Shown: positions 28,236-41,024, numbered from the stretch's first letter. The stretch is DNA of 64,000 nt from an uncultured Candidatus Saccharibacteria bacterium (GCA_964425625.1 CAYRMI010000002.1:62858-126857), one strand, 5' to 3'. The notes: generated by a model from the letters alone, not told the origin. Numbers and translations: made by a program.

Positions 28236-29810
28236 ATGAGTACCCCAATCATTGACCGCATTAAAAAAGAAATCGAAGCCCTCGATGTAACTACTAAGCC
28301 TGAAGAGGTTGGTGTAGTTATCTCGGTGGGTGATGGTATTGCCGAAATCGAAGGCTTGCTAAAAGCCCAGATGATGGAAATGGTCATTTTCGAAACCAGT
28401 AGCGGTAAGTCTTTGGGCGATACCCTCAAGCAAGATGGGTCTCTCTTTGGACTGGTGCTAAACCTCGAGGAAGACACGGTCAAGGTGGTGATTTTGGGTG
28501 AAAGTAATTTGGTGAAAGAGGGGATGCAAGTGCGTCGCACCGGTCAGCTTCTCTCGGTACCAGTTGGTCCGGCTATTGTGGGGCGAGTGGTCAATGCACT
28601 AGGTGAAGCGATTGATGGTAAGGGGGTGATTGCAACCGATAAGAACATGCCGATTGAGCGTGTGGCTTACGGTGTAATGGATCGTTCGTCAGTGAACGAA
28701 CCAATTCACACTGGTATCAAGGCAATTGATTCAATGATTCCGATTGGTCGTGGTCAGCGCGAACTGATCATTGGTGATAGAGGTACCGGTAAGACCACGA
28801 TTGCGATTGATACCATTATCAATCAAAAGTATGAACCAAAAGAAAAACGCCCAATTTGTATTTATGTCGCCATTGGTCAAAAGCGTTCCAAGACCGCTAG
28901 TATCATGGCCAAGTTAGAGGAGGCCGGCGCGCTAGAGTACACGACTATCGTGGCTTCTTCCGCGGCTGAGGCTTCGCCGATGCTTTTCTTGGCTCCTTTT
29001 ACCGGAGCAGCTATCGGAGAGTATTTCATGCAACAAGGTAAGGACGTGGTGATTGTCTTTGATGACCTTAGCAAGCATGCGGTGGCTTATCGCCAGATGT
29101 CACTTTTGCTCCGTCGCCCACCAGGACGTGAGGCTTATCCCGGTGATATTTTCTACCTTCATTCACGTCTCCTCGAGCGTTCCGCCAAGCTTAGTAAGGA
29201 GCTGGGGGGAGGGTCTATTACCGCTTTGCCGATTATTGAAACCCAAGAAGGTGACGTGTCAGCCTATATTCCTACTAACGTGATTTCTATTACCGACGGA
29301 CAGATTTTCCTTGAGGGTGATTTGTTCAACAAGGGAATCCGTCCAGCCTTAAACGTCGGTATTTCAGTGTCACGTGTAGGGTCTTCGGCACAGACAAAAG
29401 CGATGAAGAAAGTATCAGGCAAGATTCGTCTTGAGCTAGCCCAGTTCCGTGAACTAGAAGCTTTTATGCAGTTTGCTTCAGACCTCGATGAAGACACTAA
29501 GAGTCGTATCGATAGTGGTCGCAAGTACGTCGAGCTTCTTAAGCAAAAGCAAAACAACCCAATGCCATTCCAGAAGCAAGTAGTATCTATCTATGGAGCC
29601 AACAACGGTCTCTTTGATGGAGCGATTTACCAAATGGTAAGTAAGACCGAAGATTCCTTCCACGAATTTATCGAACGAGATCGCAAGGATATTTTGACCA
29701 CCATCGAAACCGGCCGAGAACTAACCGATGAAGTAGTAGAGAAACTAAATAAAGCGATTGCTGACTTCAAGGAAGCGCATGCTGAACTCTATACGGCGAT
29801 CGTAAAATAG
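28236..29810 (+). CDS. atpA: ATP synthase F1 subunit alpha.
   Basis: Walker A GDRGTGKT. Length 524 aa. Confidence 0.95.
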
Positions 29811-29846
29811 CATTCAAAAAGTTGATGCAAAAGTTCTTCAAAAATC

Positions 29847-30137
29847 ATGAATCCACTCACACAAAAATTACAAAAAATCCTACTCTATACTTTGGTAGCC
29901 TTTGTCTTTTTGTTTGCCGTTCTGTATGTGATGAGTAATGTTTTTGGTTTGAGTTGGAATTTTCCTTGCGGTCCAGGTTCAAGACCTTGTTCATATCCGA
30001 CCTATCAGTACATTGATTTGTATGAAATAGGTTACATTGTTTTAGGTATAGGAATAGGCTTTTTGCTACTTCTTCAGCTAACTGTGTATCTAGCGAGTGT
30101 GTTAAAAAAGATTACTTCTCCAATTATAAAAAAATAG
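29847..30137 (+). CDS. Small hydrophobic protein inserted between atpA and atpG.
   Basis: 96 aa with two predicted TM helices. The stop lies 1 nt before the atpG start. Confidence 0.4.
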   Translation: MNPLTQKLQKILLYTLVAFVFLFAVLYVMSNVFGLSWNFPCGPGSRPCSYPTYQYIDLYEIGYIVLGIGIGFLLLLQLTVYLASVLKKITSPIIKK

Positions 30138-30138
30138 C

Positions 30139-31044
30139 ATGGCACTCAAACAAATCAAAAACAAAATAATTTCCACTAAAAAGACTGGCAAAGTGACCAA
30201 GGCGATGGAGTCTGTCTCGGCGGTGAAGATGCGCAAGAGTCAGGAGCGAGCGTTTTTGGCGCGTCCTTATGTGCACTCCGCTTTGAAGATACTTTCTCAT
30301 GTCTCGCAATCACAAGCCGTGCAAAGCCACTCTCTAGTAGTTCGACGTACCGAAGGGAAGACTCTTCTGGTGGTGATTACTAGTGATAAGGGTTTGGCTG
30401 GTAGTGTGAACAGTGCAGTCCTAAAGAAGGTAGAGCAGTTAGAAGCTACTGGTACCGCTTTCGATATGATTGCCGTTGGTCGCAAGGCGGTGGAGTTTGC
30501 GGCGCGGGAAAAAATCGCCGTGCTGTCTCATTACACCAACGTCGGCGATGAAGTAACAGTCGAGAATGTTTACGAAATAACTTCAGCCGTTATTGAGTCA
30601 TACAAAAAAGACAATACTTACGCCAAGGTTGATGTAATTTACCAAAACTTCCTCTCGACCTTTGAGCAGGAAGCAACGATGCGCCAAGTACTACCGCTAG
30701 ATCCAGCTGAAGTACACTTCATGATGCGAGGTATTCGTCCGCGTCACGGGAAGTTTAGTGATGATGTGGTACCACCGGATGCTGTGATTGACCACACTAT
30801 CGAGCCAGATGCACAGACCGTCTTCGATGCGCTCATTCCGCAACTCATTCAGATTATTCTTTTCCATGCTTTCCTTGAGAGTAAGGCCAGTGAGCACTCC
30901 GCTCGTATGGTAGCGATGAAGAACGCCACTGATAAGAGTAAGGAAGTAGTGAAGTCACTTACGATTAAGTTTAATAAAGCCCGGCAAGCAAAAATCACGG
31001 CGGAGATTTCAGAGATTACCGCTGGAGCAGCTGCAATGGAATAA
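30139..31044 (+). CDS. atpG: ATP synthase F1 subunit gamma.
   Basis: Conserved N- and C-terminal helices (KITKAMESVSAVKMRK ... ITAEISEITAGA). Confidence 0.9.
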   Translation: MALKQIKNKIISTKKTGKVTKAMESVSAVKMRKSQERAFLARPYVHSALKILSHVSQSQAVQSHSLVVRRTEGKTLLVVITSDKGLAGSVNSAVLKKVEQLEATGTAFDMIAVGRKAVEFAAREKIAVLSHYTNVGDEVTVENVYEITSAVIESYKKDNTYAKVDVIYQNFLSTFEQEATMRQVLPLDPAEVHFMMRGIRPRHGKFSDDVVPPDAVIDHTIEPDAQTVFDALIPQLIQIILFHAFLESKASEHSARMVAMKNATDKSKEVVKSLTIKFNKARQAKITAEISEITAGAAAME

Positions 31045-31046
31045 TT

Positions 31047-31304
31047 ATGAATATTTTTAATCTAGTTAGAATTATTTTGCTCGGCACGGCCTCTCTTTTG
31101 GTCGTTGCGGATTATACTTTTTCTGTATCTAGATATCCCGACACTTCTATAATCGGTTACCTAATCCTTTCGGCCCTCTCTGCTTCTTGTGCGTCGTTTC
31201 CGCCAAGTAAGATTTTTCAGTTATGGTATGTGCGATGGGTTGTTTGTATTCCGTTAGCGATAGTGTTTTTTCTAGTAGCGATTATGTCGATGAGTAGAGC
31301 GTAG
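31047..31304 (+). CDS. Small hydrophobic protein inserted between atpG and atpD.
   Basis: 85 aa with two or three TM helices. It starts 3 nt after the atpG stop. Confidence 0.4.
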   Translation: MNIFNLVRIILLGTASLLVVADYTFSVSRYPDTSIIGYLILSALSASCASFPPSKIFQLWYVRWVVCIPLAIVFFLVAIMSMSRA

Positions 31305-31361
31305 TGCTTGGTAGTGAGTGTCTCCTAGAGACTTTCACTACTCAGTGTTACGAACGCATGA

Positions 31362-32762
<1,401 letters not shown>

Positions 32763-32921
32763 CATCATCTACTTTGTTGCTCATCGCAAAATATCTTTCA
32801 TCGTACAACTAGTACGCCTCAAGATATTTTGCTCGAGCGCCTCGTATCTGGTGTCACTTAACTTCATCTATGTAAACGTTTTTCCGTAGAGATAAGTGAG
32901 TGATAATGTAAAAAAATAACT

Positions 32922-33173
32922 ATGTCTGAATTAAAACAATTAAACCTAACCATCTCTAATGTCGACGCGCCGGTTTTTTCTGGCTTGGTCGTTTCGGTGA
33001 CTGTACCAGGAAGTGAAGGGGAGATGACTTTACTCGCCGACCACACGCCACTCATGTCAGCATTGCGCGCTGGTAATATCATCGTCCGCAAAGAGGGGGG
33101 TGAGACTGAAACTTTTCCCGTCACCTCTGGCACCCTTGAAGTCAGTCACAACACAGTTACAATTTTGTTGTAA
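32922..33173 (+). CDS. atpC: ATP synthase F1 subunit epsilon (beta-sandwich only, 83 aa).
   Basis: The N-terminal beta-sandwich pattern is typical of epsilon. The C-terminal helical hairpin is absent. Confidence 0.7.
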   Translation: MSELKQLNLTISNVDAPVFSGLVVSVTVPGSEGEMTLLADHTPLMSALRAGNIIVRKEGGETETFPVTSGTLEVSHNTVTILL

Positions 33174-33186
33174 GAATAATTAAGAA

Positions 33187-33216
33187 TTACTCCTAGGGTG
33201 ACCCTAGGAGTAATTG
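33187..33216 (+). terminator. Rho-independent terminator of the atp operon.
   Basis: Perfect 13-bp palindrome TTACTCCTAGGGT-G-ACCCTAGGAGTAA followed by TTGTGGTTTT. Confidence 0.8.
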
Positions 33217-33285
33217 TGGTTTTAGCTTGTAAAGAAAAAGACGCCGGTGAGGGCGCCTTTGGAAGGCCTTTGGGCAAGGAACAGG

Positions 33286-34221: not shown

Positions 34222-35127
34222 CTAGAAATTATTACTTTGGGTGAGTGTGTTGCTGGTGGTATTAAAAATAGCGTAGGATATTTGGGTATTTTCTATGACG
34301 GATGCATGGTTTTCGGGATTGGAGATAAGTAAGGTAGTTGCCCAGGCATCGGCGGTGACGGCCTTGGGGGCTTTGACGTAAATGCCCAGAGTATCGGGGT
34401 TTGGATTGGTGTTGGTTGAGGTTTCTCCTTTCTGGGTTGATGTGTCGACTATATGTGAGTACTCCTGACCAGCTACTTTCCAGCGACGTTTGTGGGTACT
34501 CGAGGCAGCAAAGCCTTGGTCCTGGAGGGAAGTCTGTTCAACGTACGTGCCAGGTTTAGTGGGATGCTCTAGGTAGATGGTAACAGGCACTCCTTGATCA
34601 CTAGTGGCGTACATATCACCACCGCCATTGATAAGGAAATAGGGGAAGCCAAGCTCGTGTAAATAATTAGCCAAGCGGTCAATCGCAAATCCTTTACCGT
34701 ATCCGCCTAGGTCAACCGCTCCGGCCGATAGAGTAATGAGTGAGTCAGAAATAGTAAGAGATTGCAGAGGGGAGGGAATAGTGAGTGGCTCAGCCACGGG
34801 AGAAAAACTATAATCGGCATCATAACCACGGGCGAGCAAGTGCTCGCCGACTAAGATATTGAATATACCATCAGTGTCTTTGTACAATTGCTGGCCCAGA
34901 TGTAGAAGCTCAATAGTTGTTTGGTCAGGTCGATCAAGTCTTTTAGTATAATTAATCGTACTAATTATCGAGTCGGGTTTGAAGCGCGAGTATTTGGCTT
35001 CAAAGTCGATTAAGAAAAGGCGGATGAGACCGCAGGTCTCATCCGCCTTTTCTTTACTAACATCACCAAATATTTCTACCAACCAAGTGGTACCAAGCGC
35101 AGGAATTGTTGGTAAGACAATCGACAT
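34222..35127 (-). CDS. apbE: FAD:protein FMN transferase (ApbE family).
   Basis: DLGGYGKGFAIDRLA, HIVDTSTQKGE and ADAWATTLL motifs. Confidence 0.8.
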   Translation of the reverse strand: MSIVLPTIPALGTTWLVEIFGDVSKEKADETCGLIRLFLIDFEAKYSRFKPDSIISTINYTKRLDRPDQTTIELLHLGQQLYKDTDGIFNILVGEHLLARGYDADYSFSPVAEPLTIPSPLQSLTISDSLITLSAGAVDLGGYGKGFAIDRLANYLHELGFPYFLINGGGDMYATSDQGVPVTIYLEHPTKPGTYVEQTSLQDQGFAASSTHKRRWKVAGQEYSHIVDTSTQKGETSTNTNPNPDTLGIYVKAPKAVTADAWATTLLISNPENHASVIENTQISYAIFNTTSNTLTQSNNF

Positions 35128-35134
35128 GCCCGGG

Positions 35135-35698
35135 TTAGAGTACTTGAGGCTCGAGCATCTTTTTTATTGCTTCATTGAAAGCCCCTGAAGTAAGGGAAGC
35201 GCCACCGACTCGTGACAGTGATATTTCAGACAATGATTTACCTACCACTTCAGTTTTGTAAGCGTTATCAAATCTTTCATGGTTGGGATTACCATAAGTT
35301 TCTTTATCATCATAAAGAACATTAGCATCCGTCACAATATCCCCAGTCATGGTTAATTCTACAGTTATCTTATGTTCTTTGCGAGCGGGAGTAAGGTAGG
35401 TCGACTCACCTTTAAGCAAGGTTGTACTCGGGGTGTCAGTAGTACCGTCATCGACAACTTCAATTTCTTCGGCTTGTTCTATCTCCTTAGTACGATTTAC
35501 TTCTTCAGTAACTAAGTCTGTAGTTGGGGCGTTAGCTTCTGGTCCCGGAATAAGAAAAAATGCTACTCCTAGCACGACGATTATTACTCCTAAGACAGCG
35601 ACAACAATTGGCATAACGATAGTTTGATTGATTAGAATAATGACAACTAATACATTATACTTAATTAATCCAAGAACTTCAAAATTACTAAGAGTCAA
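35135..35698 (-). CDS. Membrane-anchored FMN-binding domain protein (NqrC/RnfG-like).
   Basis: N-terminal TM anchor. The C-terminal FMN_bind-type motif SRVGGASLTSGAFNEAI matches the ApbE flavinylation consensus Dxx(S/T)GA(S/T). Confidence 0.65.
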   Translation of the reverse strand: MTLSNFEVLGLIKYNVLVVIILINQTIVMPIVVAVLGVIIVVLGVAFFLIPGPEANAPTTDLVTEEVNRTKEIEQAEEIEVVDDGTTDTPSTTLLKGESTYLTPARKEHKITVELTMTGDIVTDANVLYDDKETYGNPNHERFDNAYKTEVVGKSLSEISLSRVGGASLTSGAFNEAIKKMLEPQVL

Positions 35699-35716
35699 AA
35701 ACTCATAAATTTAGTT

Positions 35717-37276
35717 ATGTTAGCTGTTTTGCAAAAAGGGTGGCAAATTATCGAAAGAAAATTGGACAGAACCGCGATGTATCGCACAGTGACCTTGGCC
35801 CTTAGTTTTTTAGCCTTAGTTTCCATCGGCTTAGGTTTTACTGGACGTTTGCCGTACTCGGGCCCAGAGCAATTAATATCTTTAGTAGTCGCCTTAGCTA
35901 CAGCGCTAGGGGTGAATTATGTCTGTAGTCGAATATGGAAAGTGGCTGTCAACCAAGAGTCGGCGGTTATTACGGCGCTTATCTTGTATTTCTTAATTAT
36001 TCCGGTAGAACAATCTAAACTTGAAGATTTATGGGTTATAGCCACGGTGGTGGCTTTGGCGGTTATATCAAAATTTGTCATCGCTTGGCGTAAACAACAC
36101 ATCGTAAATCCGGCGGCTATTGGTCTAGTACTGATGGCTGTGGCCTACGCGGTACTTCCATTACCGGGTTATTTTGAATCAGTTTGGTGGGTGGGGCAAA
36201 GAGAATTATTTCTACCCCTTTTGCTAGCCGGTAGTGCCGTAGTATTAAAAGTACGTAAGTGGGTGCCAGTTGCGACTTTTTTGCTGGTGGCTTTCGTGGT
36301 TTTTTTGTTTGAAGAATGGCGGTTTAGTGGCGATGTGTGGGGTAGGGCAGATTATTTCTGGCTCTCTGGGCCGAGCTTATTTCTAGCTTTCTTTATGTTG
36401 ACCGAGCCCTTTACTATGCCTCCGACGAGGAAGCTACAAGCCGTCTACGGTGGTTTGGTTGGTTTAATTTCTCAGACTACACTATTCATGCCTTTAGGGA
36501 TTAAAATGACTCCTGAGCTAGCACTGATCTTGGGTAACTTGGTCTTCTACCGGTTTACCCTCCGACGAAAACTCTACCTATCTTTGCAATCGGTGCGCGA
36601 GATAGCCAAACATACGTACGAGTTTGTTTTTATTAAACCAGTGGGTATTAAATTTAAAGCCGGGCAATATATGGAATGGATGCTTCCACACCCTGGAGCA
36701 GACAATCGAGGTGTTCGTCGTTATATTACTATCGCGTCATCGCCTCTAGATAACACCTTGCGAATAGGGGTTAGATTTGGGGGAGAAATTAGTAGCTTCA
36801 AAGCTGCCTTACTTAAACTGAAGCCCGGACAAACCATTATAGCTAGTCAATTAGGAGGAGATTTTGTTCTTCCCGTAGATAATACAAAAAAAACCGCCAT
36901 GGTCGCGGGTGGTATTGGCATTACGCCTTTCGTCAGTCAGATATCCCAAATGGAGCTTAGTAAAATTAGCTATGATACAGTTTTGTTTTACTGCAATAAC
37001 ACACTGGCTGAAGCAGCTTATAGGGATAGACTACAGGCTTCGCAGTTGATGATTCCACTTAAAGTGGTAAATGTTTTAGCTAAAGAGAGTGCGGTTGGGT
37101 GTGAGACTGGCTTCCTGACAGCCGAAACAATAAAAAGGTTTGCTCCTGATTACTTGGAGCGACTTTGGTATCTCTCTGGCCCACCGGGTATGGTTGATGC
37201 CTATGCTAAATTATTGCACGAATTAGGAGTGAGTAAGCGATATATAAAGAAAGATTTTTTCCCTGGACTAGCTTAA
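35717..37276 (+). CDS. Membrane oxidoreductase. An N-terminal NqrB/RnfD-like polytopic domain appears fused to a C-terminal FNR-type FAD/NAD(P)-binding reductase domain.
   Basis: N-terminus has about 8 TM helices and FFMLTEPFTMPPT...VYGGLVGL, which resembles the RnfD/NqrB FFMATDPxTSP motif. C-terminus has RYITIASSP (the RxYS flavin motif) and MVAGGIGITPFVS (the NAD(P) motif). Confidence 0.55.
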   Translation: MLAVLQKGWQIIERKLDRTAMYRTVTLALSFLALVSIGLGFTGRLPYSGPEQLISLVVALATALGVNYVCSRIWKVAVNQESAVITALILYFLIIPVEQSKLEDLWVIATVVALAVISKFVIAWRKQHIVNPAAIGLVLMAVAYAVLPLPGYFESVWWVGQRELFLPLLLAGSAVVLKVRKWVPVATFLLVAFVVFLFEEWRFSGDVWGRADYFWLSGPSLFLAFFMLTEPFTMPPTRKLQAVYGGLVGLISQTTLFMPLGIKMTPELALILGNLVFYRFTLRRKLYLSLQSVREIAKHTYEFVFIKPVGIKFKAGQYMEWMLPHPGADNRGVRRYITIASSPLDNTLRIGVRFGGEISSFKAALLKLKPGQTIIASQLGGDFVLPVDNTKKTAMVAGGIGITPFVSQISQMELSKISYDTVLFYCNNTLAEAAYRDRLQASQLMIPLKVVNVLAKESAVGCETGFLTAETIKRFAPDYLERLWYLSGPPGMVDAYAKLLHELGVSKRYIKKDFFPGLA

Positions 37277-39755: not shown

Positions 39756-41024
39756 TTATTTTGCTTGAGTGGCTGCTTGGCCAGCCACAAAACCAGTACT
39801 CCAGCAAAGCTGTAGACTGTAGCCACCAGAGGGTCGGTCGATGTTTAGAATATCGCCAGTGAGATAAAGGTTAGAAAATTTGCGTGACCGCATGGTCTTG
39901 AAATCAACTTCGGTTAGATCTATACCACCTGATGTGACAATCGCCATATCGGCACCCAGTAAGCCAGAGATGTTTAATTGAAAATCTTTGAGCAAGTGTA
40001 CCAATCGGCGCCTCTCTTCTTTGGTGATGCTGTGACACTTTGTTTCCGGCCCGATGCCTGATAGTTTTATCACTACCTTGGCTAAGGTAGGAGGAAGAAA
40101 ACCAGCTAGAACATTTTTGAATAATTTATTACTATGCTCGGAAAATAGGTTGATGATAGCATCATCAAGCGAGCCAATATCTGCCTTGGGAAATAGATCT
40201 AGCGATAAGGTGACTGGTCCGTAATCGAGCAACTCACCGATCATCTTACTCATATTGAGAATGGTTGGTCCACTGACACCAACGTGGGTAAAGAGAATTC
40301 GTCCACTTTTACTAAAAGCTTTTTTGGTGCTCTGGTAGACGCTGATTTTTGTTTCTGGCCAGGTCAATCCAGCTAATTCCTTGATCCAAATATCTTTGAC
40401 TGTTAGCGGTACGAGCGAAGGGTCTGGAGCAATGACATTATGGCTAAGTAAAGAGAGCCAACGGAAGCCATCGCCAGTGGAGCCAGTCTCAGGGCGGGAT
40501 TTGCCACCGGTGGCGATGATGTATGACTCTGCCCGATAAGTGGTGCTATCGGTGAGTGTGACAGCAGTAATCTTGTCTTTACTTGATACCAAAGTCTTCA
40601 CTTCAGCGTGATTTTTTACCGCGACTTTGCTTTCTTTTAGGTAGTTAATCAGCACATCATAAACCGACCGCGCACTGTCACTGATAGGGAAGACCCGCTT
40701 ATGTTCTTCGACTTTAGTCGCAAGGCCACGGTCATGAAAAAAATTGAGAGTGTCTGCTACGTTGTGTTGAGAAAAAGTAGAAAAGAGGAACTTAGCGCTG
40801 TCTTTGTAGTGAGCTAGTAGGGTACGAGTATCGAACTCAGCGTTGGTGAGGTTGCACCGGCCCCCACCGGTAATGAGGAGCTTTTTACCCAAGCCGGCAT
40901 TTTTTTCCAGTAATAGTACCCGAGCGCCGGCCCGGCCAGCGGTGCCGGCCGCCATCATACCAGATGGTCCGCCTCCAATGACGATGACATCGTATATATT
41001 TTCTTTGTTATCGGGCTTTAGCAT
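39756..41024 (-). CDS. HI0933/BaiN-family FAD-dependent flavoprotein.
   Basis: N-terminal GxGxxG YDVIVIGGGPSGMMAA and the family-typical ITGGGRCNLTN motif. 422 aa. Confidence 0.85.
   Translation of the reverse strand: MLKPDNKENIYDVIVIGGGPSGMMAAGTAGRAGARVLLLEKNAGLGKKLLITGGGRCNLTNAEFDTRTLLAHYKDSAKFLFSTFSQHNVADTLNFFHDRGLATKVEEHKRVFPISDSARSVYDVLINYLKESKVAVKNHAEVKTLVSSKDKITAVTLTDSTTYRAESYIIATGGKSRPETGSTGDGFRWLSLLSHNVIAPDPSLVPLTVKDIWIKELAGLTWPETKISVYQSTKKAFSKSGRILFTHVGVSGPTILNMSKMIGELLDYGPVTLSLDLFPKADIGSLDDAIINLFSEHSNKLFKNVLAGFLPPTLAKVVIKLSGIGPETKCHSITKEERRRLVHLLKDFQLNISGLLGADMAIVTSGGIDLTEVDFKTMRSRKFSNLYLTGDILNIDRPSGGYSLQLCWSTGFVAGQAATQAK

Follow-up and report, generated by a model that had tools for sequence, protein, structure and literature searches.

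How could electrons from NAD(P)H be carried across a membrane by flavins alone, when the enzyme that would attach one of those flavins carries no export signal? The question is raised by a three-gene locus in the window, the whole stretch of 64,000 nucleotides analysed here, which comes from an uncultured Candidatus Saccharibacteria bacterium, one of the Patescibacteria. We consider it probable, at roughly two in three, that this locus encodes a two-subunit, flavin-only transmembrane electron conduit together with a dedicated flavin transferase.

The three genes and their products

All three ORFs were confirmed between positions 34222 and 37276 (Table 1). An earlier note on this DNA had read them as a trio of ApbE, an NqrC-like FMN_bind protein and an NqrB/RnfD-FNR fusion, and Pfam, joined by NCBIfam for the fusion protein, upheld every one of these domain calls. 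The motifs that it quoted are likewise all present: DLGGYGKGFA (139-148), SHIVD (224-228) and ADAWATT (259-265) in ApbE, SRVGGAS (134-140) in the FMN_bind protein, and MLTEPFT (227-233), RRYITIASSP and MVAGGIGITPF in the fusion protein. The apbE gene starts 7 nt from the upstream FMN_bind gene, both on the minus strand.

Table 1. Features of the locus, with positions counted from the first nucleotide of the window.
Feature	Position	Strand	Basis
apbE: FAD:protein FMN transferase, 301 aa	34222..35127	-	Pfam ApbE, 4xgw alignment, motifs
NqrC/RnfG-like FMN_bind subunit, 159 aa	35135..35614	-	Pfam FMN_bind, profile match to 8p2a
Predicted flavinylation motif S134-R-V-G-G-A-S140	35195..35215	-	column alignment with canonical motif
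Divergent intergenic region, 102 bp, promoter-like site 35654-35682	35615..35716	.	consensus match only
NqrB/RnfD-like membrane domain of fusion, aa 1-285	35717..36571	+	PF03116, profile vs RnfD/NqrB
T86	35972-35974	+	predicted non-covalent flavin site, with H128 and E230
H128	36098-36100	+	predicted non-covalent flavin site, with T86 and E230
Outer-face loop 147-161 (LPLPGYFESVWWVGQ) with W157 W158	36155..36199	+	alignment, positive-inside analysis
MLTEPFT motif, aa 227-233	36395..36415	+	alignment to NqrB
FNR-type FAD/NAD(P)H reductase domain, aa 286-519	36572..37276	+	PF00175, NCBIfam, Foldseek
RRYITIASSP, aa 334-343	36716-36745	+	FNR domain motif
MVAGGIGITPF, aa 395-405	36899-36931	+	FNR domain motif

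The FMN_bind product is membrane-anchored, as the earlier note had stated, and the TTG start at 35698 (a 187-aa ORF) gives way to the ATG at 35614. This ATG (159 aa, MPIVVAV...) is almost certainly the start, because the 159-aa form is the one found in public gene calls, all six close orthologues begin with MP[IL]V, and the best minus-strand promoter-like site (TTGAAG-17-TATAAT, 35682->35654; 10/12 matches, a consensus match only) falls within the TTG extension. The idea that the divergent intergenic region holds an FMN riboswitch, or an RNA element of another kind, was rejected, as an Rfam search of the whole window returned none.

The N-terminal half of the 519-aa protein matched NQR2_RnfD_RnfE (PF03116; E=5.4e-14, 52.7 bits, cut-off 27.7), with NCBIfam rnfD/RsxD/NqrB matches in the same half, and the C-terminal half matched NAD_binding_1 (PF00175; E=1.3e-10, 42.3 bits, above cut-off), with NCBIfam FNR-family matches spanning residues 289-515; both matches agree with the domain calls of the earlier note. 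The reductase half has the two-domain fold of FNR proteins and carries both the RxY[ST] FAD motif and the GGxGxxP NAD(P)H motif. Foldseek retrieved GcoB, flavohemoglobin reductase domains and NqrF FAD domains (E about 1e-13 to 1e-16), and SpNOX was also among the fold matches of the fusion protein; most of what this whole-protein search returned came from the FNR half, and it offered nothing independent on how the membrane half folds. The AF2 model has a pLDDT of 87.8. No Fe-S motif is present in the fusion protein, whose only Cys residues lie at 70, 426 and 462.

Predicted flavin sites in the membrane domain and the FMN_bind subunit

Searched as a single sequence with phmmer against the PDB, the membrane domain gave no match; a profile of 19 sequences matched RnfD (8ahx_D, E=1.4e-5) and NqrB (7xk3_B, E=7e-4). 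The domain has about 10 helices with N-in/C-in topology, the positive-inside analysis counting 11.8 K/R in the inner loops versus 1.5 in the outer ones.

The earlier note had taken FFMLTEPFT for the covalent-FMN region of an RnfD/NqrB-like protein. It is not, because in the profile alignment FFMLTEP pairs with NqrB FFMATD346P, the riboflavin-binding stretch, and NqrB 215-273, which carries the acceptor Thr, is left without an aligned counterpart, profile positions 131-143 occupying its place. The flavinylation Thr of NqrB/RnfD is missing: there is no [ST]GA[ST] anywhere in the 519-aa protein, which rules out a flavinylation site within the fusion protein itself. D..[ST]GA[ST] was found in none of 124 fusion representatives, and SGAS occurs in a variable outer loop of 5/120 fusion relatives with no preceding Asp. 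Loop 147-161, which lies where NqrB has its covalent-FMN loop and which the positive-inside analysis places outside, contains W157 and W158, neither of which varies in A1 or A2.

In NqrB, D346 hydrogen-bonds a non-covalent riboflavin whose ligands include T162 and N200 (Hau 2023). The corresponding columns pair T162 with T86, N200 with H128 and D346 with E230 of the window protein, all three invariant or nearly so, and T86, H128 and E230 are predicted to form a non-covalent flavin site. As the riboflavin-site residues are kept and the covalent-FMN loop is gone, a defined three-flavin wire is suggested.

The covalently bound flavin would sit on the second subunit, in which Pfam recognised FMN_bind (E=3.3e-5, 24.9 bits, cut-off 22) and whose family profile matched the solved FMN-binding domain 8p2a, as named by its depositors (E=8.7e-17). 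The protein consists of a TM anchor (aa 3-24), an acidic linker and the FMN_bind domain (about aa 70-159). Its motif SRVGGAS is typical of the window clade, and Ser140 (35195-35197) falls in the column that holds the T/S of the DxxSGA[T/S] motif of distant orthologues and of the 8p2a SGAT; it is the predicted FMN acceptor of the NqrC-like subunit. On alignment the motif keeps G-A-S and the acceptor column, while the Asp and the [S/T] of D-x-x-[S/T]-G-A-[S/T] are replaced. These two departures weigh against the conduit reading. According to the flavinylation motif review, D->A has minor effects only, Ser is accepted as acceptor, and ApbE reads the motif as a 7-residue linear stretch. The ApbE subtype and this variant of the motif vary together.

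The electron path that we infer, with regard to cofactor occupancy, direction of flow, membrane side of the FMN_bind domain and acceptor, would begin in the FNR domain of the 519-aa protein, on the cytoplasmic side, with the reduction of FAD by NAD(P)H. From FAD they would pass to the non-covalent flavin at the NqrB riboflavin-like site (T86, H128, E230), in the cytoplasm-proximal half of the membrane domain, and then to the FMN that ApbE would join to Ser140 through a phosphoester. The NqrC/RnfG-like subunit would dock on the outside, at the place where NqrB has its own FMN-bearing loop and the window protein the invariant WW loop instead, and Ser140-FMN would deliver the electrons to an extracytoplasmic acceptor.

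The missing export signal of ApbE and the side of the flavinylated domain

The ApbE assignment is firm (Pfam E=1.1e-36, 127 bits, cut-off 25.6), with a complete set of the conserved GKG(F/Y)A, SH(I/V)xD and ADAW motifs. Aligned with E. coli ApbE 4xgw (E=8e-16), query residue 10 pairs with residue 22 of the crystallised chain, relative to which the window protein has no N-terminal extension. It opens at the first conserved strand, ALGTTW (residues 10-15), and its N-terminus and alignments reveal no signal peptide, lipobox or TM segment. The same start at the first conserved strand was found in 28/28 cluster-linked ApbEs, none of which has a signal peptide, lipobox or TM segment, and 120/120 database relatives lack a signal peptide or lipobox, observations that speak against the conduit reading. 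A hidden upstream start that would supply a signal peptide was considered and rejected, because no start codon lies between the preceding in-frame stop and the beginning of the ORF as listed; the maximal ApbE ORFs in the 28 loci likewise offer no earlier signal-bearing start.

Judged from sequence, a flavin-attaching enzyme without export signal is the unexpected feature of the cluster, and its sole surprise. Because ApbE never carries such a signal, the site of flavinylation and the membrane side of the flavinylated domain come into question. The text available of the papers on NQR/RNF-like systems (PMC8238504, PMC11334425), the published class discussed below, is silent on the absence of an export signal in the associated ApbE. 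According to PMC12052999, which cites Bertsova 2014, ApbE specificity is set by localisation, a cytoplasmic ApbE acting on cytoplasmic targets. The cytoplasmic ApbE of Klebsiella pneumoniae resembles that of the window in having no signal peptide and an FMN_bind target encoded nearby, but this target is a soluble cytoplasmic fumarate reductase, whereas that of the window is a membrane-anchored NqrC-like protein, extracytoplasmic according to the literature.

One tentative explanation, possible but still doubtful, is that the ApbE of NQR/RNF-like systems is cytoplasmic and attaches FMN to the C-terminal motif while the NqrC-like subunit still awaits translocation, SRVGGAS and the long ApbE subtype being a co-evolved enzyme/substrate pair. 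The uniform absence of signals, the linearity of the 7-residue motif and an acceptor that lies 20 residues before the C-terminus are consistent with such a "flavinylate, then export" order. If it were true, delivery of FAD to the outside would be unnecessary, since FMN would be attached before translocation.

Rather unlikely, in our view, is an FMN_bind domain that would be flavinylated and retained in the cytoplasm, on an anchor running N-out/C-in, and would relay electrons between the FAD of the FNR domain and the flavin site nearest the cytoplasm, leaving the membrane domain alone to pass them on, either to its outer side or to an acceptor dissolved in the membrane. This arrangement would agree with the lack of any signal in the cluster-linked ApbEs, and cytoplasmic ApbE/FMN_bind pairs with localisation-controlled specificity have precedents (PMC12052999). 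The charges around the FMN_bind anchor (0 K/R before the TM segment; 1 K/R and 4 D/E after it) give a weak bias that is not decisive against it, and this weakness also counts against the conduit reading. On the other hand, the acidic post-TM flank in the window clade and the MKK-type N-terminus in other clades favour N-in/C-out, the long S/T/P/Q-rich or acidic linkers look, in our own judgement, like extracytoplasmic tethers, and the NqrC/RnfG homologues are periplasmic. Moreover, in a published AlphaFold-multimer model (PMC10979944, PMC11334425) the flavin site of the NqrC-like subunit is docked at the membrane subunit, and the NqrC-like subunit is labelled extracytosolic. A cytoplasmic FMN_bind domain would be equally unconventional, and the published "extracytosolic" assignment of the class would then be wrong.

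Conservation, class and related systems

In Patescibacteria, Chloroflexota and Actinomycetota alike, the trio forms a conserved unit, which bears out the co-occurrence that the earlier note had proposed to check. Its genes are adjacent in the window and in 7/7 close loci, two of which differ in their other flanks, and the order FMN_bind->ApbE->fusion is retained in most distant loci (Patescibacteria, Ktedonospora, Actinomycetota). Distant ApbE and FMN_bind copies were recovered by local iterated HMMs, single-query tblastn having missed most of them, and the distant membrane-domain set consists of phmmer matches alone; its iterated version drifted to FNR-only matches because whole ORFs were aligned. 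As the earlier note had stated, no other Rnf/Nqr subunits are found in the window neighbourhood, nor in those related loci for which genes were called; the surrounding genes are of the housekeeping kind, such as ATP synthase, UDG, DUF2061 and Fpg.

Very unlikely is the possibility that the NqrB/RnfD-like domain couples electron transfer to Na+ or H+ movement and is tied to the adjacent ATP synthase, which would fit either orientation of the FMN_bind domain. An F-type ATP synthase adjoins the module in the window, L083 and L084, and a V/A-type ATPase does so in L087, but the adjacency may be plain synteny, since it is lost in L085 and L086. In Nqr, redox-driven switching of NqrD/E gates Na+ movement, and NqrD/E are absent from the locus, although NqrB itself has been proposed to be the part of Na+-NQR that translocates Na+ (Hau 2023). 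That the locus is a remnant of a full Rnf/Nqr complex with partner subunits encoded elsewhere in the genome is extremely improbable: Pfam and NCBIfam place the membrane domain in the NqrB/RnfD family and in public records it goes under "RnfABCDGE subunit D", but the lack of further subunits nearby, the FNR domain fused in 124 of the best 150 membrane-domain cluster representatives, the deleted covalent-FMN loop and the movement of the trio as a unit between genomic contexts (L085, L086) all stand against it.

Returning to the two-subunit conduit, the locus is a member of a published class. Meheust 2021 (eLife, PMC8238504) defines NQR/RNF-like systems by a PF03116 + PF00175 fusion in a flavinylation cluster, and Huang 2024 (mSystems, PMC11334425) extends their modelling. 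In the window, PF03116 (N-terminal) and PF00175 (C-terminal) lie in one protein, the ApbE and FMN_bind genes are adjacent with their adjacency conserved, and the flavinylation Thr of the membrane subunit, as described in Huang 2024, is not conserved. The fusion that the earlier note had called an unusual architecture is therefore neither unusual nor new, as it is the published definition of the class and has many relatives: 4374 for the fusion protein at E<=0.001, the best 120 near-full-length with 51-100% identity, and 581 for the membrane domain alone at E<=1e-10 (50%-identity cluster representatives). A two-subunit model, with the B/D-subunit flavinylation site lost and the NqrC-like flavin docked at the membrane subunit, is given in PMC10979944 and PMC11334425, and an outward NAD(P)H-driven flavin conduit had already been hypothesised in PMC8238504 and PMC11334425. 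The NAD(P)H-to-outside conduit of the earlier note agrees with that hypothesis, but its extracytoplasmic part is strained by an ApbE without export signal. In the literature searched we found no experimental data on any NQR/RNF-like member; as the class is already in the literature, the locus adds a member to it and no new concept.

The window shares with the class the fusion, its NqrC/RnfG-like FMN_bind and ApbE partners, the loss of the B/D flavinylation site and the stated range (candidate phyla radiation and Actinobacteria). The window clade differs in gene orientation, the fusion gene and the FMN_bind-ApbE pair pointing away from each other and not in the same direction, and in an acceptor motif of SRVGGAS rather than DxxSGAT. 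With Na+-NQR (NqrA-F) and Rnf (RnfABCDEG) the locus has in common a homologous NqrB/RnfD domain with conserved riboflavin-site residues, an NqrC/RnfG-like subunit predicted to be flavinylated, an NqrF-like FNR domain and ApbE as maturation factor. It is not a canonical Nqr or Rnf, which has six or seven subunits: only two polypeptides would be involved, without NqrD/E, RnfA/E, Fe-S centres or Fe-S subunits, or quinone- or ferredoxin-binding subunits, and, judging by sequence, the B/D-type subunit lacks covalent FMN on an SGAT Thr. The predicted path is one-way, whereas theirs is U-shaped.

Listeria flavin-based extracellular electron transfer follows a similar logic, predicted here, of carrying NADH electrons to a surface FMN_bind protein flavinylated by ApbE, and both Listeria and the window host are bacteria without an outer membrane. 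The Listeria-type FLEET components are nevertheless missing, as none of Ndh2, EetA/B, DmkA/B and the lipoproteins PplA and FmnB is encoded among the neighbours, and there is no quinone step; the membrane would be crossed instead by a flavin-binding NqrB-like domain. By alignment of its N-terminus, the window ApbE carries neither a Sec nor a lipoprotein signal, and so belongs neither to exported ApbEs nor to the lipoprotein type of Listeria. NOX/FRE-type and MsrQ-like/PepSY-like + PF00175 proteins likewise fuse a cytoplasmic FNR-type dehydrogenase to a membrane electron-transfer domain, but cross the membrane on two b-type haems, whereas the window fusion has no haem-binding domain and only predicted flavins. 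No acceptor gene lies in the neighbourhood, an observation that also weighs against the conduit reading.

Patescibacteria have very few redox enzymes. An iron-free, self-contained path from NAD(P)H to the cell surface may be among their few routes to re-oxidise NAD(P)H or to reduce an external target, for example iron, an acceptor derived from a host or components of the envelope that have become oxidised.

Gene content and class of the flavin module

The three open reading frames claimed in the earlier note were all present as described. The minus-strand ApbE is a protein of 301 aa (Pfam ApbE, E = 1.1e-36), and 7 nt upstream of its gene, on the same strand, lies the gene of the FMN_bind protein (Pfam FMN_bind, 24.9 bits; cut-off 22). 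The start of the latter is most probably ATG 35614 (159 aa) rather than TTG 35698, because public gene calls place the start there, all close orthologues share an MP[IL]V N-terminus, and the TTG extension contains the best minus-strand promoter-like match (35682->35654). The NqrB/RnfD-like character proposed for the N-terminal domain of the 519-aa fusion protein was borne out by NQR2_RnfD_RnfE (PF03116; E = 5.4e-14, 52.7 bits, cut-off 27.7), and the FNR-like character of its C-terminal module by NAD_binding_1 (PF00175; E = 1.3e-10). NCBIfam matched residues 289-515 to an FNR family and the N-terminal half to rnfD/RsxD/NqrB, and the motifs quoted in the note were all found where expected.

The same note regarded a fused NqrB-like/FNR polypeptide as unusual, but this is an already published class. 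Among flavinylation clusters, Meheust et al. 2021 (eLife, PMC8238504) define "NQR/RNF-like systems", in which one protein combines an N-terminal NqrB/RnfD-homologous membrane domain (PF03116) with a C-terminal PF00175, and the module is a further example of this known class. Its reading as a NAD(P)H-to-outside flavin conduit agrees with the hypothesis published for the class, of which no experimental study was found in the literature searched. Nor is the family a rare one: a search with the fusion protein gave 4374 relatives at E<=0.001, the best 120 of which are near-full-length and 51-100% identical, and the membrane domain alone retrieved 581 50%-identity cluster representatives (E<=1e-10), the fused form (at least 400 aa) accounting for 124 of the best 150. 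The nearest homologues are named from Patescibacteria/Paceibacterota assemblies.

ApbE (-), a 150-168 aa protein (-) and the fusion protein (+) were always adjacent across the window's contigs and five relatives (53-67% identity), and this adjacency was kept in loci L085 and L086 despite differing flanking genes. Further afield, at 29-40% identity, loci of other Patescibacteria lineages and of Ktedonospora (Chloroflexota), Nocardioides and Amnibacterium usually had the order FMN_bind, ApbE, fusion on a single strand; ApbE or FMN_bind was not detected near the fusion gene in L001, L005, L012, L016 and L017, and in L018 and L020 the fusion gene sits at a contig edge. As the trio is adjacent in close loci and usually together in distant ones, the co-conservation on which the earlier note had made its proposal depend holds. 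Many of the Saccharibacteria loci (L026-L035 and others) matched the query only in the last membrane helix and FNR domain, with FMN_bind and ApbE genes beside the partial match in L027; these loci may carry the same FNR type joined to a membrane domain that is of another kind or has diverged strongly.

Predicted flavin sites in the fusion protein and its partner

The AF2 model of the fusion protein (22 homologues; pLDDT 87.8, pTM 0.84) places a beta-barrel/Rossmann FNR module after about ten membrane helices, and Foldseek matched the protein to FNR-family reductases, including NqrF FAD, flavohemoglobin reductase and SpNOX dehydrogenase domains. With loop limits taken from the model helices, mean K/R was 11.8 in inside-assigned loops versus 1.5 outside, which gives an N-in/C-in topology with a cytoplasmic FNR domain.

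A membrane-domain profile (19 sequences) matched RnfD (8ahx_D, E = 1.4e-5) and NqrB (7xk3_B, E = 7e-4), aligning with NqrB 144-214 and 274-393; NqrB 215-273 had no counterpart, its place being taken by a short outer loop with invariant W157 W158. This unmatched segment contains the FMN-acceptor Thr236 (V. cholerae numbering). The [ST]GA[ST] motif was absent from the window protein, and D..[ST]GA[ST] from all 124 cluster representatives. An SGAS at about residue 205, in a variable loop that links helices 7 and 8 on the outer face, was seen in five of 120 close homologues (P0040, P0045, P0051, P0053, P0069), the window having FSGDV (aa 203-207) instead; since no Asp lies three residues upstream, it is probably due to chance, despite its outer-face position.

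The assignment of FFMLTEP to the covalent-FMN region was wrong. In the profile alignment the invariant E230 of MLTEP faces D346 of the NqrB FFMATDP motif, a residue that holds the non-covalent riboflavin by two hydrogen bonds; T162, N200 and the G198 backbone are likewise ligands. Of the two flavins, riboflavin is the nearer to the cytoplasmic side, and the covalent FMN is close to the periplasmic side (Hau et al. 2023). Column by column, T162 corresponds to the nearly invariant T86, N200 to the invariant H128 and K191 to the invariant K119. Because the riboflavin ligands map to conserved residues and NqrB 215-273 is unmatched, these alignments argue that the fusion family has retained a riboflavin-type site and lost the covalent-FMN loop. 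Huang et al. 2024 (PMC10979944 / PMC11334425) present an AlphaFold-multimer model of the Ktedonobacter complex, describe the NqrB/RnfD flavinylation site as not conserved in the membrane subunit, and suggest that the flavin of the NqrC/RnfG-like subunit samples a non-covalent flavin site there (PMC11334425).

An FMN_bind profile (19 orthologues) matched the solved FMN-binding domain 8p2a (E = 8.7e-17), Ser140 of the window protein aligning with the T of SGAT. Across loci L002-L025 and L081-L087, two acceptor-motif types co-vary with ApbE subtype: partners of short ApbEs (about 245-260 aa, starting ...LMGMPITVEV) mostly carry canonical DI[IV][ST]GA[TS], with H, Q or N replacing the leading Asp in a few loci, and those of long ApbEs (about 290-305 aa, starting ...ALGTxWxIEI), the window included, carry variants such as SRVGGAS, SRIAGAS, SKVSGSS and DKVAGSS. 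As a D->A change in the flavinylation motif D-x-x-[S/T]-G-A-[S/T] makes little difference and Ser can serve as acceptor at somewhat reduced efficiency (PMC12052999), Ser140 is a credible predicted FMN acceptor. The flanks of the N-terminal anchor weakly favour N-in/C-out, and the published NQR/RNF-like model places the FMN_bind domain outside the cell (PMC10979944 / PMC11334425).

Genomic surroundings

An F-type ATP synthase operon directly precedes the module in the window, L083 and L084. At the corresponding position L087 (1-3043) has a V/A-type ATPase (A, B, D subunits); its fusion protein is 59% identical, with UDG and Fpg downstream as in the window. Either one ATPase type was exchanged for the other at this site, or ATPase and module are functionally linked. 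The two ORFs downstream of apbE are not conserved at the corresponding position in L083 or L084, and their stretch ranks second in G+C (0.49) within the window. The palindrome is terminator-like on both strands. The 85-aa ORF, without a Pfam match, is also a called gene in public contig L082. Rfam at gathering thresholds found no tRNA, rRNA, riboswitch or other family in 1-64000. The HI0933-like protein adds another flavoenzyme to a genome of a flavin-poor type; none of the related loci inspected had it next to the module.

Features of the module and its surroundings in the window
Feature	Position	Strand	Remark
F-type ATP synthase operon	28236-33173
Hydrophobic ORF, 96 aa	29847-30137	+	after ATP synthase alpha gene
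Hydrophobic ORF, 85 aa	31047-31304	+	between ATP synthase gamma and beta genes
Perfect palindrome, AATTACTCCTAGGG...CCCTAGGAGTAATT	33185-33215		14-bp stem; between atpC and convergent minus-strand genes
Terminator-like hairpin	33237-33260		beyond the 84-aa and 166-aa ORFs
ORF, 84 aa	33286-33540	-	downstream of apbE; no Pfam match
ORF, 166 aa	33569-34069	-	downstream of apbE; no Pfam match
apbE	34222-35127	-
FMN_bind gene	35135-35614	-
Fusion gene	35717-37276	+
FSGDV codons	36323-36337	+	within fusion gene
HI0933-like FAD flavoprotein	39756-41024	-	Pfam 9.7e-79; 2.5 kb downstream of module

Proposed electron path and an ApbE without export signal

The best-supported reading of the module is a three-flavin wire. 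Electrons would pass from NAD(P)H to FAD in the FNR domain, then to a non-covalent flavin at the predicted T86/H128/E230 site, from there to an FMN bound covalently to Ser140 and docked at the outer-face WW loop, and finally to some further acceptor. The fusion protein has no Fe-S or haem motif. Neighbouring genes encode the F-type ATP synthase, UDG, DUF2061, Fpg, the HI0933-like flavoprotein, a C39-like peptidase and YkuD, with no acceptor candidate among them; nor was VIT1 found in this neighbourhood, which a minority of NQR/RNF-like clusters adjoin and for which iron assimilation was suggested (Meheust et al. 2021, PMC8238504).

By sequence inspection, hydropathy and alignment, none of 28 fusion-linked ApbEs (three being the window copy and those of its two duplicate contigs) has a signal peptide, lipobox or TM segment, and all 28 maximal ORFs open with the fold's first conserved strand. 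This strand starts at residue 5-11 in 112 of the 120 closest database relatives; none of the 120 has a lipobox, and the two longer N-termini among them are hydrophilic. Residue 10 of the window ApbE aligns with residue 22 of the crystallised E. coli chain. According to PMC12052999, exported ApbEs are lipoproteins, the periplasmic ApbE could not be replaced by a cytoplasmically expressed one, and in K. pneumoniae a separate signal-less ApbE serves a cytoplasmic target. It is possible that FMN_bind is flavinylated before translocation, that its domain is actually cytoplasmic, or that the enzyme gets outside by some other route. The available sections of Meheust et al. 2021 (PMC8238504) and Huang et al. 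2024 (PMC11334425) contain no comment on a signal-less ApbE; nothing in the module goes beyond the literature searched except this enzyme and the co-varying acceptor motif.
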